From positions 42,160-106,159 of the forward strand of contig CAVKZJ010000003.1 of assembly GCA_963660905.1 (NCBI GenBank): DNA of 64,000 nt. The letters run 5' to 3'. Below are positions 34,689 through 39,910 of this stretch, piece by piece (position 1 is the stretch's first letter; the number at the start of each line of letters is the position of its first letter). The notes beneath the pieces were generated by a model. It was not told the DNA's origin. It saw only the letters and a program-made list of their open reading frames with translations, and did no database searches. The translations under genes were made by a program, and so were the position numbers. The DNA comes from a bacterium (GTDB lineage: Bacteria > Bacillota_I > Bacilli_A > RFN20 > CAG-288).

Positions 34689-34711
34689 TCCGATTCGATT
34701 TTGATTCAATG

Positions 34712-34756
34712 TGCCTAGACTTTCCTTTTTGGAAGGCCTAGGTTTTTTTCTTTGAA
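34712..34756 (+). terminator. hairpin terminator after uxuB
   Basis: GCCTAGACTTTCC-ttttt-GGAAGGCCTAGG followed by TTTTTTT. Confidence 0.45.
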
Positions 34757-34760
34757 AAGT

Positions 34761-34790
34761 CTTTTAGCAATCCTAATGAAAACGTATAAT
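34761..34790 (+). promoter_or_regulatory. candidate promoter of the McrBC-like island (TTAGCA ... TATAAT)
   Basis: Perfect -10 hexamer TATAAT at 34785-34790; the -35-like hexamer sits at sub-optimal 15-nt spacing. Confidence 0.3.
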
Positions 34791-34817
34791 GAAAGGAAAT
34801 CAAAAGGAGGTATTCAA

Positions 34818-35222
34818 ATGGCCTATTATCTACAGCAGAGTGGGCAAAATCTTGTCGTCGCTAAAGAAATTATGGTTCTTTTCTCGACCGATCGAGTTGA
34901 GATCGTCAATTTAGGAAAGAACACAAAGGATACAAGATCATTCCCAAATAAAATCTATGATATTGTCTATCAGCCTGAATTGAAATCGGATCTATATGAA
35001 TTGAGAGTCTATCTGTTCGAAACATATATTCCCATCGATCGAGTGTATTTCAATGTGGAGAATCTGATGAAGACAAAAGAAGAGCTTCCCCCGCAGACAA
35101 AAAGAAAGATTATGGAAGTGAAGAAGGAAGTGAAAATCAAAACGACGAAAACAAAAGTGGAATCCTTAAAGAATGAGTTCCAGGAAAAGGTAAAGGAGAT
35201 TGTGAAAAATGTACTTGAATAA
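34818..35222 (+). CDS. hypothetical protein (134 aa), first gene of McrBC-like island
   Basis: Start at MAYYLQ chosen for its AAAAGGAGG RBS; no recognisable domain; Lys/Glu-rich C-terminus; its stop overlaps the next gene's start. Confidence 0.5.
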   Translation: MAYYLQQSGQNLVVAKEIMVLFSTDRVEIVNLGKNTKDTRSFPNKIYDIVYQPELKSDLYELRVYLFETYIPIDRVYFNVENLMKTKEELPPQTKRKIMEVKKEVKIKTTKTKVESLKNEFQEKVKEIVKNVLE

Positions 35223-36132
35223 AGAAAATCTGTCATCCATGAGTGAAGCGGAAATTGAGAGACTATGTACGATTGCGAGCGTTGAAAGACTGAAAAACAT
35301 CCTGATTGATTATTATGGAGATGAATCAACTAGAAGAAAGCATTACGGAAAAGGATCGAAAGAGTGGAATAATAAAGACAAAAAAAATCCGCCAGCCTCC
35401 TTTGTGAAGAGTTTCTTTGTGTTTCTCTTCACCAAGGAAGAGAATGTTCCTGAAAAATATTATCAGCTGTTCGAAGAGAAACTTTTGAAGACGATTGTCG
35501 GGAAGGAAAAATATCAGAATGCCTCTGCGGAGATGATCCATTCTTCTATCGATGAGGATGAGAAATATAGCCAGAGAGACTATAAGGCGATTCTCTATAA
35601 GGCTTTTGGTTTTGAGTTGGAAAAGGAAGAAGACCTCCCTGTAGAGGAAGCCGACGAAGAGGAAGAAAAGGAAGAAGTGAAAACCAAATTCTCCTTGCCT
35701 AAGATTTCCAAGAAGGATGATGTGGAGACAAGAATCAATCAAGCTGTCAGCAAGCAGGCCAAGGAAGACAAGAAAAACTACGATGACCTGAAGAAGAAAT
35801 ATGACGCATCGGAAAACAAGCTCAAAAAAGCTCAAGAGGATCTTTCTGTTCTGAAGAATTCCTACTCCACGCTGAAAAAAGAACGCGATGGATTCGAAAA
35901 AAAGAATGCGGAGAATGAGGAAAAATTATCTTCCATCCTGAAAAAACTGAATACTCTATCGAAAAGAAAGATGGCTGATCTTGATAAAAATACGCTTTTG
36001 GTTGAGCAGAGCAATGCCGTGGAAATTCTTCAGCTGGCCATCGATGAATTGAAGAAATCCCATTATTCTCTCTCGATGGATCAGATTGTGAAGGCCTATG
36101 TGATTTTAGGTCTTCTTGAGAAGGGAGAATGA
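35209..36132 (+). CDS. coiled-coil protein (307 aa), function unknown
   Basis: Globular N-terminal domain, acidic linker (EEADEEEEKEE), long heptad-like Lys/Glu-rich segment; 14-nt overlap with the upstream gene and ATGA overlap with the downstream gene. Confidence 0.55.
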   Translation: MYLNKENLSSMSEAEIERLCTIASVERLKNILIDYYGDESTRRKHYGKGSKEWNNKDKKNPPASFVKSFFVFLFTKEENVPEKYYQLFEEKLLKTIVGKEKYQNASAEMIHSSIDEDEKYSQRDYKAILYKAFGFELEKEEDLPVEEADEEEEKEEVKTKFSLPKISKKDDVETRINQAVSKQAKEDKKNYDDLKKKYDASENKLKKAQEDLSVLKNSYSTLKKERDGFEKKNAENEEKLSSILKKLNTLSKRKMADLDKNTLLVEQSNAVEILQLAIDELKKSHYSLSMDQIVKAYVILGLLEKGE

Positions 36133-38087
36133 GAATGGAACAGGAAATGGATTTTAGCGGACTGAGCGAGAAATTCGACGAGGTTTCTGATCATGTCGTT
36201 TTGGCTGTTCTCTATAAGACCTTCATGATGCAAAGTCAGAACCATTGCTATTTGCAATGTGCACTTCTTCCGATTTCGGATGAACCGGATATTCTTCTAG
36301 AGAATGAATCGGTTTTCTGGAGCAAAGCCATGATTGATGGGAAATCCTGCTATACTGTCACAGGTGACAACCTTTTGCAGTATCTTGGCAAATGGGATGG
36401 ATATTCTTCTGAATCCGAGGAGGATGTGAGAAGACAAGAGGAAATCATTGTCGAAGCGATGAAGGAGAAAATGCTTCTTTTCACTCCGTATTACAAATAT
36501 GATGAGAGAAAGAATATTTTCTACAAAAATGTCGATTCCAATGAGGACGTCTTGACTCTTCCGCTTCATTATCTCAATGAAAGCTACTTTGTTGTCCCGA
36601 TTCTCAATGAACAGAATTTCAGACTGTTTTTGGCCCACAAAACCTTCTCTCTTTCCAATTGGAATCTGAGTCTCTTTGGAAAACCGAAATATATTCTCTA
36701 TGGAAACCACCTTATTCTTGCTCCTTTAACGACAAGCGAGAACTCGGATTACAACTGCCAATGGGAAAAGAAAGATAAGGATTATCTTGATCTCGAGTTC
36801 GACTTCGATGATTTCGTCTCTAACGGTTTCCTTTACTATGAAAATGGATCGGGATACTGCTTCTTGGAAAAGGCAAGCCTTCCTCTCATGAGGAAAATGC
36901 AGTCCCTTCCTTTCCAAGACGATGATTCACAGGATGAGATGGAGAAAATCGTCCAGCCTTCCGATCAGTATGATACAAGAAAAGCCTTACTCGGCTTTGA
37001 GTCCTATCTGAAAAGCAAGAATCTCTACTATTATGATGACGATGTCAAGAATTTTCATGCCTGTCTGAAATGCCGGCTTCTGACGATTCTTGCTGGCATG
37101 TCGGGAACGGGAAAGACACGTCTTCCCTTGGAATATGCAAACTACTTCAACATGACAGAGGAGAACGGCACGCTTCTTTTTGTTCCGATTTCGCCAAGCT
37201 ATACGGAGCCGAGCGATATGCTCGGATTCTATAATCCGGCCAATGAAAACTATATGTCCAGTGAGACGGGCTTGGTTAGTTTTCTTAAGCATGCCTCAGA
37301 AAATCCTGACAAGATGCATATGGTGGTTTTCGATGAGATGAATCTTGCACAGATCGAATATTATTTTGCTCCCTTCCTTTCGATATTGGAAAGAGAAAAA
37401 GACCGTCGGATTCTTCGACTCTACGACCAAAACCTGGAATGCAAGAATAAGGAACTCTATCCCGATTCCATCAAAATCGGAGACAATGTCCTTTTTGTCG
37501 GAACCATCAATCTTGATGATACGACAAAAGAGCTTTCCGAAAGACTTCTTGACCGTTCATTTGTGATTTCCTTGCGCCGTGCTTCGTTTGATAAATACAA
37601 TGGCGTCATGCTCGATAGGGCAGAAGAAAACGGAAAGATCTATGAAGGGGAATTGATGTCCTTGATGCCAAAGATGGCAAAGACGTTCAACTTCAACTCC
37701 TTTCTGACTCCGACGATGCGAGAATTCTTCGATGAATTCAATCGTCTCCTCTCGGAGAAGGACCCACAGAAAGGCATCTCCTTCAGAACTGTTCGCAACA
37801 TCTCTCTCTATCTTGCCAATTCGAGAATGGAGGAAGACGGTCTACTCGATGACATCGGGGCAAAACAGGCTTTTGACTTTGTTTTCCGTCAGACGGTTTT
37901 AAGAAGAATCCGAGGAAGTGACGAGATTTTGAGCGAAGTGCTTGGATGTCGTACGGAAGATGGTAAAATTCATTCTCCAATCTATGATCTGCTTGAGAAA
38001 TATGGCGAGATATCCTCGTTTGAGCTTTCCAAGCAGGAAATCGCCAATAAAATACTTGAATTGAAGCGGTATGGCTATGTCCGATAA
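36129..38087 (+). CDS. McrB-like AAA+ GTPase (AAA_5 type) with novel about 300-aa N-terminal domain
   Basis: Walker A GMSGTGKT, Walker B VVFDEMN, and McrB-signature GTINLDD...LDRSF (compare McrB GTMNxxD...RRF); the first 300 aa match nothing recognisable. Confidence 0.8.
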   Translation: MRMEQEMDFSGLSEKFDEVSDHVVLAVLYKTFMMQSQNHCYLQCALLPISDEPDILLENESVFWSKAMIDGKSCYTVTGDNLLQYLGKWDGYSSESEEDVRRQEEIIVEAMKEKMLLFTPYYKYDERKNIFYKNVDSNEDVLTLPLHYLNESYFVVPILNEQNFRLFLAHKTFSLSNWNLSLFGKPKYILYGNHLILAPLTTSENSDYNCQWEKKDKDYLDLEFDFDDFVSNGFLYYENGSGYCFLEKASLPLMRKMQSLPFQDDDSQDEMEKIVQPSDQYDTRKALLGFESYLKSKNLYYYDDDVKNFHACLKCRLLTILAGMSGTGKTRLPLEYANYFNMTEENGTLLFVPISPSYTEPSDMLGFYNPANENYMSSETGLVSFLKHASENPDKMHMVVFDEMNLAQIEYYFAPFLSILEREKDRRILRLYDQNLECKNKELYPDSIKIGDNVLFVGTINLDDTTKELSERLLDRSFVISLRRASFDKYNGVMLDRAEENGKIYEGELMSLMPKMAKTFNFNSFLTPTMREFFDEFNRLLSEKDPQKGISFRTVRNISLYLANSRMEEDGLLDDIGAKQAFDFVFRQTVLRRIRGSDEILSEVLGCRTEDGKIHSPIYDLLEKYGEISSFELSKQEIANKILELKRYGYVR

Positions 38088-39747
38088 ACTCTTCGTCACG
38101 ATAAATAAAGAGGAACCGATTGCCTTTGATCTTTTAAAGGAAAAGGAAAGAATCCTCTTTTCAATGAATGATACCTGCCACCTTCGTGTTTCTTTTCATA
38201 CGGATTCCAACGGCCGGTTTTCCATGCAGTGCTATCAGGCATTGAATGAAAAGAAGAACAAGAAAATCACGATTGAAAAAAACATCCTCCTCTTGGATAA
38301 GGATGTTACGTATTATGTTTCCGGAGGAAGCGAATATTATTACCTTCCGGGAGTCTATTGTCTTTACTATGAATGCACCACGGGCAAGAAGACATTCTAT
38401 TTTGAAGTGAAAAATAATTCTGTCTTGGGAAAGGATGGATTTGGAAACATCATCGTAAGACTCGAATCGATTCTTCAGAATATCACCCGTGAGCTTTCCA
38501 GGAAAGGCGATGTGGATTCTTCCGAGCAGTCCTATCCTCTTTTGGCACATCGATTGGAAGAAAATTTTCCTTCCTTCAAGGAACTTGAAAGAAGGATGCT
38601 TTCCTGTCTGAAGGAGGATGTGGTGACGGTCTATGGCTTTTTTTCCTCTGGAAGAGAAGACTACAAGACATTCAGGAGAAACGTCACGCATCCTTTTTCG
38701 GAAAAGATGACGAAGAAAAAAAGACTCTCCTATGATTCGAACGAAAACCGTTTTCTGAAGTATCGGATGAATGCCTTCAAAAGAAAGATATCTTCCCTTT
38801 TGAATTCCCTGAAGGAACAAGAGGTGAAAAATCATCTCTTGCAAAAGGAAGGGATGGAAAAACAGGAAGAGCTTACCAAAAAAAGAGAAGAGAATCTCTA
38901 TATGGATGCTCGGCTTTCCAAGGAAGACCTTGTTCTCCAAAAGAAACAGAATGAGCTGCGAGGAGAAGACAAAGTCATATCTGGCCTGATGGAAATTTTG
39001 ATGAGATACTATCGCATCTGCGGTTCCTTTCTGCAAGATGAAAGAATCAAGAAGGTCAGACTTCTCTCGACACCATCCTATTTATCTTCCTCGCCGATGG
39101 CAAAAGAAATCCGTGACATGCAAAAGAAGATTTTTCCAGATAAGGATAAAGTCTCCTATAAACCGGCTCGCGAACTGTTCGAACTCTATGGCTATTATCT
39201 GATCCACACGGCTTTGATGGAACTCGGCTATCAAAAAACAGACCAATCTCTTTCTGTCCTCAAGGAAAATGAAAGCTTTTTTGTCTATGAAAGTGAACAG
39301 AGGATGGTCAAGGTTCTCTATGGTCCCTTCTGTAAGGATTTCCTTACCAATAAAGAGATGGATTGCACGGTCAGCATCAATTCTCATCACCGATCGCCTG
39401 ATTTCATCATGGAAGTCTATGATTCAAACACAAATGTCTTCCTTTTCGATTTGGTTTTGGAAATCAAATATATCCCGATTTTCAAGTTTGAGGAAAAACC
39501 GGATCTGAAAAAGGATATTTTATTGACAGCGAGCGACTATCTCCAATTCGGCTTTGTCTCTTCAGAAGGATTGCGAGTCGGTGCCGTGAGAAAAGTGATG
39601 ATTCTTTTCCCATCATTGGAAGAGAAAATTGACGACTATCTTTCTTTCCATAAGATTTATCTCTTAGGCATCGACATGAATAAGGAGACCGATGAAAGCA
39701 TGGTCTATTCCTTCCTGAGAGAAGAATTAAGCAAAGAAAATGAATGA
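38071..39747 (+). CDS. McrC-like PD-(D/E)xK endonuclease with long N-terminal extension
   Basis: C-terminal PDF...D-x-EIK motif (SPDFIMEVYD...FLFDLVLEIKY) consistent with the McrC nuclease core; coiled-coil segment in the middle; 17-nt overlap with the McrB-like gene. Confidence 0.65.
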   Translation: MAMSDKLFVTINKEEPIAFDLLKEKERILFSMNDTCHLRVSFHTDSNGRFSMQCYQALNEKKNKKITIEKNILLLDKDVTYYVSGGSEYYYLPGVYCLYYECTTGKKTFYFEVKNNSVLGKDGFGNIIVRLESILQNITRELSRKGDVDSSEQSYPLLAHRLEENFPSFKELERRMLSCLKEDVVTVYGFFSSGREDYKTFRRNVTHPFSEKMTKKKRLSYDSNENRFLKYRMNAFKRKISSLLNSLKEQEVKNHLLQKEGMEKQEELTKKREENLYMDARLSKEDLVLQKKQNELRGEDKVISGLMEILMRYYRICGSFLQDERIKKVRLLSTPSYLSSSPMAKEIRDMQKKIFPDKDKVSYKPARELFELYGYYLIHTALMELGYQKTDQSLSVLKENESFFVYESEQRMVKVLYGPFCKDFLTNKEMDCTVSINSHHRSPDFIMEVYDSNTNVFLFDLVLEIKYIPIFKFEEKPDLKKDILLTASDYLQFGFVSSEGLRVGAVRKVMILFPSLEEKIDDYLSFHKIYLLGIDMNKETDESMVYSFLREELSKENE

Positions 39748-39910
39748 AAATGTTTTCACGAAGTTATGAAAATATTTTCAAAATAGGTTGTTTTTCCGAT
39801 TTGATGATGTGACTAGATTCTTGAAACCCCTTCCCATCATGAAATGTTTCTTTGAAAGATTTTTATACGTGATATAATTTTTTTTGTTCAGAATCCAAGG
39901 AGCTCTTCAA

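Follow-up and report, generated by a model that had tools for sequence, protein, structure and literature searches.

Introduction

McrB GTPases have been divided according to their signature motif, and the coiled-coil-associated part of the N-x-D branch has been named CoCoNuT (Bell et al. 2024, eLife 13:RP94800, PMC11090510). In the Type I-B layout, which is found mainly in Bacillota, a separate CnuA protein combines a PYD/CARD-like domain, a coiled coil and a REC-like domain, CnuB combines a CSD, a YTH-like domain and the GTPase without a fused coil, and CnuC carries an immunoglobulin (Ig)-like domain, DUF2357 and a PD-DxK nuclease (PMC11090510). That paper gives the CnuA domain ranges as 1-142 and 266-352, the REC-like domain being the second (about 87 residues), and its authors report that the PYD/CARD-like and REC-like domains were detected by structure comparison only. 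They also predict that the NxD clade acts at least partly on RNA, and argue for RNA or single-stranded targets. The present study concerns a cassette of four genes, g1 to g4, carried by the + strand of a 64,000-nucleotide stretch of contig CAVKZJ010000003.1 (assembly GCA_963660905.1, positions 42,160 to 106,159); this whole stretch is called the window, and all coordinates given without another label refer to it.

We propose, with a probability of about 0.7, that the four genes form an operon whose products make up a CoCoNuT-type (NxD-clade) machine of the McrBC family, closest to Type I-B in its layout and most likely devoted to defence against phages or mobile DNA by the mechanism set out in the Discussion. 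Its placement among the CoCoNuTs follows from the association of three features: the NxD signature of the GTPase, the separate coiled-coil protein encoded upstream of it and the McrC homologue with an N-terminal extension. A first-pass annotation of the window had considered the same genes as a candidate undescribed defence system related to Type IV restriction.

Results

Four overlapping genes under purifying selection

The cassette comprises four open reading frames (ORFs) on the + strand: g1 at 34818-35222 (134 amino acids (aa) from an ATG, or 156 aa from a possible TTG start at 34752), g2 at 35209-36132 (307 aa), g3 at 36129-38087 (652 aa) and g4 at 38071-39747 (558 aa). The database homologues of g3 begin two codons downstream of its annotated start, and a start at 36135 would yield 650 aa. 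The stop codon of each gene lies beyond the start of the next one, with overlaps of 14, 4 and 17 nucleotides (nt) for g1/g2, g2/g3 and g3/g4, and Shine-Dalgarno-like sequences precede g1, g2 and g3, with a weak one ahead of g4. In the comparison with two syntenic relatives, all four genes display ratios of nonsynonymous to synonymous substitution rates (dN/dS) of 0.07-0.17 (0.09-0.11 for g2) and are under purifying selection, so that the two small ORFs are real genes; the four overlapping genes described by the first-pass annotation, with these very lengths, are thereby confirmed. Exact-sequence look-ups of the four proteins returned no database name.

A GTPase of the NxD clade and its nuclease partner

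The g3 product is predicted to be an AAA+ GTPase of the CnuB/McrB kind, within the NxD clade. Pfam AAA_5 (E 1.1e-7) and, weakly, NCBIfam McrB (E 3.3e-5) match it, and a search of the PDB with the profile of its family retrieves E. coli McrB (6hz4, E 0.0065) across both Walker motifs. The motif check locates Walker A, GMSGTGKT, at residues 323-330 (nt 37095-37118), Walker B, VVFDEMN, at residues 399-405 (nt 37323-37343), the N-x-D signature, GTINLDDTT, at residues 458-466 (nt 37500-37526) and RLLDRSF at residues 472-478 (nt 37542-37562), all on the + strand. In the alignment of the relatives, G323, G326, G328, K329, E403, D463, R472 and R476 are invariant and N461 nearly so. The N-x-D motif is kept in 67 of the 68 relatives, the remaining sequence giving no pattern match; the next residue is E or D (Q in one relative), ahead of S or T and then T. 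Since the fourth position of N-L-D-D varies in this way, the conserved signature is N-x-D and not N-x-x-D. The membership of the NxD branch is assigned by this motif check and by the likeness, judged by eye, of the GTPase core to Type I-A CnuB sequences. The heptad test against shuffled sequences detects no heptad segment in g3.

The N-terminal part of g3 (residues 1-260, nt 36129-36908, + strand) forms a β-rich module in the AlphaFold2 model, which was built from 48 sequences, reaches a predicted local distance difference test score (pLDDT) of 89 and consists of several small β-rich domains. A Pfam scan of residues 1-300 gave no hit, and hence no DUF3578, EVE, SRA or other known modified-DNA reader. 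Fold searches with the model gave weak matches of the OB type (LEF-3, Teb1, RPA70, SSB, editosome OB proteins, Stn1/Cdc13, hSSB1 and the Rrp4 structure 2ba0), and none of the matches, all of them weak, was to a YTH domain. These structural neighbours mostly bind single-stranded nucleic acid, and Rrp4 is named in PMC11090510 as the top match for the Type I-B CSD. The module is tentatively considered as OB-like and nucleic-acid binding.

The g4 product has the predicted organization of a CnuC/McrC-like protein, a helical DUF2357 domain followed by a coiled-coil-like stretch and a C-terminal PD-(D/E)xK nuclease. The Pfam DUF2357 match (E 2.5e-6, 27.3 bits for a cutoff of 23.3) covers residues 212-291 (nt 38704-38943), and among 22 relatives of g4 this family is matched by 11, PDDEXK_7 by 5 and McrBC by 1. 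The nuclease residues found by the motif check are E371 (nt 39181-39183), P443-D444 (nt 39397-39402) and E464-I-K466 (nt 39460-39468), on the + strand. In the alignment, E371, P443, D444, K466 and Y490 do not vary, and position 464 holds either E or D; owing to this conservation of the catalytic positions, the nuclease looks active. Residues 1-135, ahead of DUF2357, look β-rich in the alignment. The search of the PDB with the g4-family profile returned no McrC chain, and only weak matches to coiled coils that we regard as noise, at profile positions 231-349, after DUF2357.

These results uphold most of what the first-pass annotation had read from the DNA, namely an McrB-like AAA+ GTPase without a canonical modified-DNA reader, an McrC-like PD-(D/E)xK nuclease, and Walker A, Walker B, GTINLDD, DRSF and nuclease motifs that prove to be invariant or nearly so in the relatives. 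The GTINLDD sequence, which it took as the McrB-type signature, is present, but its conserved form departs from the canonical N-x-x-D.

Four-gene cassettes and their three-gene relatives

A scan of metagenomes with the family alignment yielded 80 loci, whose gene order was read by simple ORF chaining; a scan of a genome collection with the single protein gave two close relatives. At every locus with a full-length g3 match, two genes, of about 105-170 aa and 230-315 aa, precede that of the GTPase, and one of about 560-600 aa comes after it. The two upstream genes pointed out by the first-pass annotation are thus conserved, as is the gene neighbourhood that it proposed to examine. Many other GTPase relatives align to g3 from about residue 296 onwards only, and the loci that match the GTPase half alone mostly have one upstream gene of 370-480 aa. 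The long upstream (A) proteins of the three-gene systems (347-498 aa) display a helical N-terminus, a coiled coil and an α/β-looking C-terminus, and by this succession they fit the CnuA domain ranges quoted above; a Pfam scan of these proteins gave no REC or Death-fold match. The annotated examples are a three-gene form of 347-664-608 aa on the Lactococcus lactis plasmid p275A (L093:2047-9058), a three-gene form of 498-674-614 aa on the Priestia megaterium plasmid pFDU301D, and a two-gene form among transporter genes in Bacillus cereus. By their organization, the annotated three-gene and two-gene loci appear to fit the published descriptions of Type I-B and Pseudo-Type I-B, respectively.

The N-terminal module of g3 and that of the GTPase (B) proteins of the three-gene systems are homologous by hhalign (probability 99.8%, E 1e-27, 224 columns), which indicates that g3 shares its architecture with them. 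In a rough neighbour-joining tree of the GTPase halves, the four-gene loci split into two groups, one placed beside the three-gene loci, the other, which includes the window, being sister to two fused-coiled-coil loci. In other loci the B protein is long (700-890 aa) and lacks an upstream partner; these are presumably fused-coil forms of the Type I-A or I-C-like kind. Such relatives without a separate upstream coiled-coil gene are abundant in the human gut (L063-L071 and L089, with B proteins of 874-886 aa, and L078-L086, with 704-725 aa), and the 886-aa B group is preceded by conserved genes of about 285, 157 and 68 aa.

The accessory proteins g1 and g2

The heptads of g2 occupy residues 178-232 (nt 35740-35904, + strand), the only segment whose heptad score exceeds that of 95% of the shuffled sequences, and the coil is short, about 55-90 residues. 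It is preceded by an N-terminal region (residues 1-135), which gave no domain match, and an acidic linker (residues 136-165), and followed by a C-terminal tail of about 45 residues. The only matches of g2 are weak ones to the coiled-coil regions of the SMC and LmuB profiles (PADLOC LmuB, E 0.052). An exhaustive HMMER search of 1.84 billion representative proteins retrieved no more than 7 relatives, all of 294-319 aa, and the 21 members of the family all measure 232-319 aa. Because only some 45 residues follow the coil, g2 has no room for a REC-like domain of about 87 residues. In its sequence organization, g2 appears to take the place of CnuA and to keep its central feature, the coil, without one of its defining domains.

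A profile of g1 built from its positional equivalents recovered 24 database proteins. The AlphaFold2 model built with these proteins (pLDDT 64, 70-79 in the core) shows, along the + strand ORF, a β-domain (residues 1-84), a low-confidence linker (85-108) and a C-terminal amphipathic helix (109-133), and suggests an Ig/FN3-like β-sandwich with a C-terminal helix. This protein evolves very fast. A g1-like gene was sought in the three-gene loci and not found, and g1 was found only in the four-gene clade. The small downstream gene of the Priestia locus was considered as a g1-like candidate and rejected on comparison; the idea that g1 is a duplicate of the N-terminal region of g4 was likewise rejected, the two having no sequence similarity.

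Transcription signals

A hairpin followed by a T-run resembling an intrinsic terminator lies at 34714-34750 on the + strand; the scan found the stem at 34720-34736, and a longer stem, CCTAG...CCTAGG followed by TTTTTTT, can be read directly from the sequence. It is predicted to end the upstream SDR-like gene and to shield the cassette from upstream transcription. The candidate promoter read at 34763-34790 (+ strand) associates TTTAGC, a 16-nt spacer and a perfect -10 box, TATAAT, at 34785-34790; its -35 box is poor and the consensus promoter scan did not report it. The terminator and promoter that had been proposed upstream of the cassette are consequently of unequal standing, the former being retained and the latter weaker than claimed. 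No terminator was found between g4 and the next gene, which encodes an aminotransferase (Pfam Aminotran_1_2, matched on an identical contig), so that read-through from the cassette is possible. A promoter-like extended -10 element (TTGAAA, a 15-nt spacer and TGaTATAAT) is present at 39853-39881, just 5' of the aminotransferase gene.

Genomic contexts and rate of evolution

The cassette occupies at least 7 unrelated neighbourhoods with the same four-gene order. In the window and in the relatives L010, L011 and L102, it lies between sugar-acid genes and an aminotransferase gene. In L001 it follows nadA and an ABC-F gene. In L004 (cassette at L004:4723-9673) it begins 216 nt after a tRNA-Met gene (L004:4433-4507), and in L104 (cassette at L104:7873-12676) 370 nt after smpB-tmRNA (tmRNA at L104:7134-7506), RNase R being encoded there as well. 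Genomic islands classically integrate at genes for tmRNA and tRNAs; the L104 and L004 stretches showed no integrase. The neighbourhood of L007 resembles a defence island, with genes for an AIPR abortive-infection protein, a Schlafen-group-3-type helicase and a MazG-like protein upstream (L007:1-3484), and one variant contig carries a HipA/HipB-type toxin-antitoxin pair downstream (L009:12509-13968). In L103, a cluster of VWA, PP2C-phosphatase, Ser/Thr-kinase and VWA genes lies about 3 kb downstream on the - strand (L103:15710-19926). In a single case, a gene for PTS_2-RNA (Tpt1/KptA-type RNA 2'-phosphotransferase) begins less than 50 nt after the cassette on the same strand (L105:12568-13122).

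Compared with L010, the flanking genes of the window are 95-99% identical at the protein level (dN 0.005-0.023, dS 0.44-0.52), against 82-91% for the cassette genes (dN 0.054-0.109, dS 0.56-0.97): the cassette evolves several-fold faster than the genes that surround it. It is common in human-gut Erysipelotrichales-like genomes. The contig of L011 (CAVCCX010000020.1), whose cassette is 86% identical, is titled as a Bacteroides uniformis bin; its gene content and the named relatives (Erysipelotrichaceae, Floccifex, Eubacterium) point to Bacillota, and it was probably mis-binned.

Several observations concern the neighbours themselves. The cluster of L103 resembles a TerY-P triad, and six similar places share this neighbourhood, but all of them may belong to one lineage; this triad has been reported beside Type II and III-A CoCoNuTs (Bell et al., PMC11090510). 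Genes for Y-family DNA polymerases, annotated as Pfam IMS or as 'damage repair protein' with a YolD-like gene, adjoin a four-gene cassette (L004:9690-11626) and the Priestia three-gene system (L094:629-2244), an adjacency that may be due to coincidence or to a shared mobile-element backbone. The three-gene relative of p275A is bracketed, in a composite-transposon-like manner, by two copies of one ISS1 (IS6-family) transposase gene, and lies near a putative phage abortive-infection gene.

Discussion

The comparison with Type I-B CoCoNuTs reveals a common framework: an NxD McrB-like GTPase without a fused coiled coil, whose N-terminal module has its homologue in three-gene systems of the Type I-B layout; a coiled-coil protein encoded separately and directly upstream (the 4-nt g2-g3 overlap); an McrC homologue with an N-terminal extension, DUF2357 and an intact PD-(D/E)xK nuclease; overlapping frames; and Bacillota hosts. 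The differences lie upstream. The coiled-coil protein measures 307 aa, as against 347-498 aa in the recovered three-gene loci, its tail is too short for a REC-like domain, its N-terminal region has no detectable similarity to the long CnuA-like proteins, and the cassette adds a further upstream gene for an Ig/FN3-like protein with a C-terminal helix. The YTH-like fold of CnuB, for its part, was not recovered for the g3 N-terminus by the weakly matching fold searches. As the REC-like domain of CnuA is missing and a clade-specific Ig-like gene is added, we file the cassette outside Type I-B, although it is closest to it, in a comparison that stands apart from the published Type I-B locus table (620 rows). 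The text and supplements of PMC11090510, taken without this table, make no mention of a four-gene form, and the association of a REC-less coiled-coil protein with an extra Ig-like protein is possibly undescribed.

The other named systems are more distant. To the eye, the GTPase core of g3 resembles the CnuB sequences of Type I-A printed in the supplement; it differs from them by the absence of a helical insert between Walker B and NxD (about 55 residues from DEMN to NLD, compared with about 85 in the Dorea CnuB of the same source), and the coiled coil that Type I-A fuses to CnuB is absent from g3. Pseudo-Type I-B of Bacillus (CnuB-CnuC without CnuA) belongs to the same branch of GTPases and McrC homologues, the Bacillus cereus protein of L092 being 36.5% identical to g3 over residues 270-652, but it includes neither a coiled-coil nor an Ig-like protein and lies among transporter genes. 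Type III-B offers, with a CnuA devoid of other recognisable domains, a precedent for a stand-alone REC-less coiled-coil protein; its UPF1-like helicase, Hsp70-like protein and inactivated McrC nuclease are all foreign to the cassette. E. coli K-12 McrBC shares the AAA+ GTPase with aligned Walker A and B, the downstream DUF2357/PD-(D/E)xK partner and the overlapping frames, and differs by its NxxD motif (NxD in g3), its DUF3578 5-methylcytosine reader, not detected in g3, and its two genes instead of four, the similarity being marginal (family profile E 0.0065). In the broad sense of the McrBC family, which asks for a McrB-type AAA+ GTPase and an adjacent DUF2357/PD-(D/E)xK partner, the cassette is a member.

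The PADLOC models, to which the first-pass annotation had pointed as a check, give a partial answer. PDC-M26A matches g3 (E 3.6e-41), but the match is confined to the GTPase core (about 290-450 of the 724 model positions), as it is for all the g3 relatives tried (E 1e-30 to 1e-50); no other model matched g1 or g4 at E<=1, and among the partner proteins of the relatives none was matched by a PDC-M26 model, so that PDC-M26 as a whole system would not be called. A literature search on PDC-M26 found no paper. The claim of an undescribed defence system, for which the annotation had itself designated a match with a described CoCoNuT or McrBC variant as the refutation, is abandoned, since the cassette falls in the CoCoNuT branch. 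What looks new is confined to the upstream part, where a small Ig-like protein and a short coiled-coil protein stand instead of the single adaptor; the overall layout is Type I-B-like.

The intact catalytic residues of the GTPase and of the nuclease, and the exchange of N-terminal regions between GTPase clades, which is expected of specificity modules, would also suit a conventional modification-dependent Type IV enzyme, in which the g3 N-terminus reads a modified base in phage duplex DNA, g3 and g4 translocate along double-stranded DNA and cut it in the manner of E. coli McrBC, and the cassette can do without g1 and g2. We consider this unlikely, as no DUF3578, EVE, SRA or other known modified-DNA reader was detected, the structural neighbours of the g3 N-terminus mostly bind single-stranded nucleic acid, and those who described the NxD clade expect it to work on RNA, at least in part (PMC11090510); the strict conservation of g1 and g2 with the cassette, and the purifying selection that they undergo, speak against their dispensability. 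Another reading would make the cassette a distinct, undescribed CoCoNuT subtype with a two-protein adaptor, formed by an Ig/FN3-like protein with a docking helix and the REC-less coiled-coil protein, in which the Ig-like protein, as a sensor, for instance of a phage protein, licenses the motor-nuclease against single-stranded nucleic acid. If true, this subtype would be a Type IV-restriction-like machine triggered by protein recognition and not by a phosphorelay; it is a doubtful proposal at present. A housekeeping or stress-type module in place of defence seems to us very improbable. In its favour, the position of the cassette between sugar-acid metabolism genes and an aminotransferase gene is fixed in the window and its close relatives; an RNA 2'-phosphotransferase-family gene comes after the cassette in one relative, RNase R, SmpB and tmRNA are encoded next to it in another, and a stress role has been suggested for the Bacillus paralogues (Bell et al., PMC11090510). 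However, a housekeeping module is expected to be conserved in position and sequence, and the cassette is distributed patchily, turns up in many unrelated settings, among them a defence island and sites next to tRNA or tmRNA genes, and evolves much faster than its flanks.

Several points weigh against the CoCoNuT-type defence cassette that we favour. In the window, its neighbours are housekeeping genes: no integrase or other defence gene is nearby, and a search for repeats that would mark an insertion gave nothing convincing. Its GC content is only slightly under that of its neighbours, and viral contigs hold only 7 distant relatives. For the closely related Pseudo-Type I-B loci of Bacillus, a non-defence, stress-related role has been proposed by Bell et al. 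(PMC11090510), and the literature searched contains no experiment on any Type I CoCoNuT. On the side of the accessory proteins, the confidence of the g1 model is modest, and when the profile of g2 was set against those of the long CnuA-like proteins (whole, N-terminal and C-terminal parts), the coiled coil alone was aligned; as no sequence homology is detected outside the coil, the equivalence of g2 and CnuA is one of position and architecture only. On the other side, the patchy distribution, the tRNA/tmRNA-adjacent sites and the accelerated evolution are circumstantial signs of a defence-like behaviour, and a seven-gene Type II CoCoNuT-like locus is reported to have given Pseudomonas protection from RNA phages and from one DNA phage (bioRxiv 10.64898/2026.04.06.716636). 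Defence against phages or other mobile DNA thus appears as the most likely role of the cassette.

The mechanism we propose for the CoCoNuT-type cassette combines a motor-nuclease and an accessory module. By homology to McrBC, g3 would assemble into a GTP-hydrolysing AAA+ ring, into which g4 would dock by its DUF2357 stalk, thereby stimulating the hydrolysis of GTP and supplying the PD-(D/E)xK nuclease. The target would be picked by the β-rich, OB-like N-terminal module of g3 itself, and not by a 5-methylcytosine reader, as the fold prediction and the CoCoNuT literature suggest. With the target chosen by an OB-like module, the substrate is more likely to be single-stranded or unusual RNA or DNA of the invader than a methylated duplex. 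The coil of g2, together with the Ig-like domain and the helix of g1, would constitute an accessory module that scaffolds, senses for or restrains the motor-nuclease, a role that we infer from architecture and conservation. In this arrangement, the g1-g2 module would replace CnuA, the single PYD/CARD-coiled-coil-REC adaptor of the three-gene relatives.

In conclusion, our observations point to a compact (about 5 kb) and self-contained cassette, whose nuclease is intact as judged by its sequence, and which represents the CoCoNuT class in a tractable form without constituting a new category of system. Type I CoCoNuTs occur widely among Bacillota, and the comparison of the four-gene cassette with its three-gene relatives provides a clean genetic handle on the function of the adaptor. 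In the human gut, the cassette may shape the relations between phages and their hosts.

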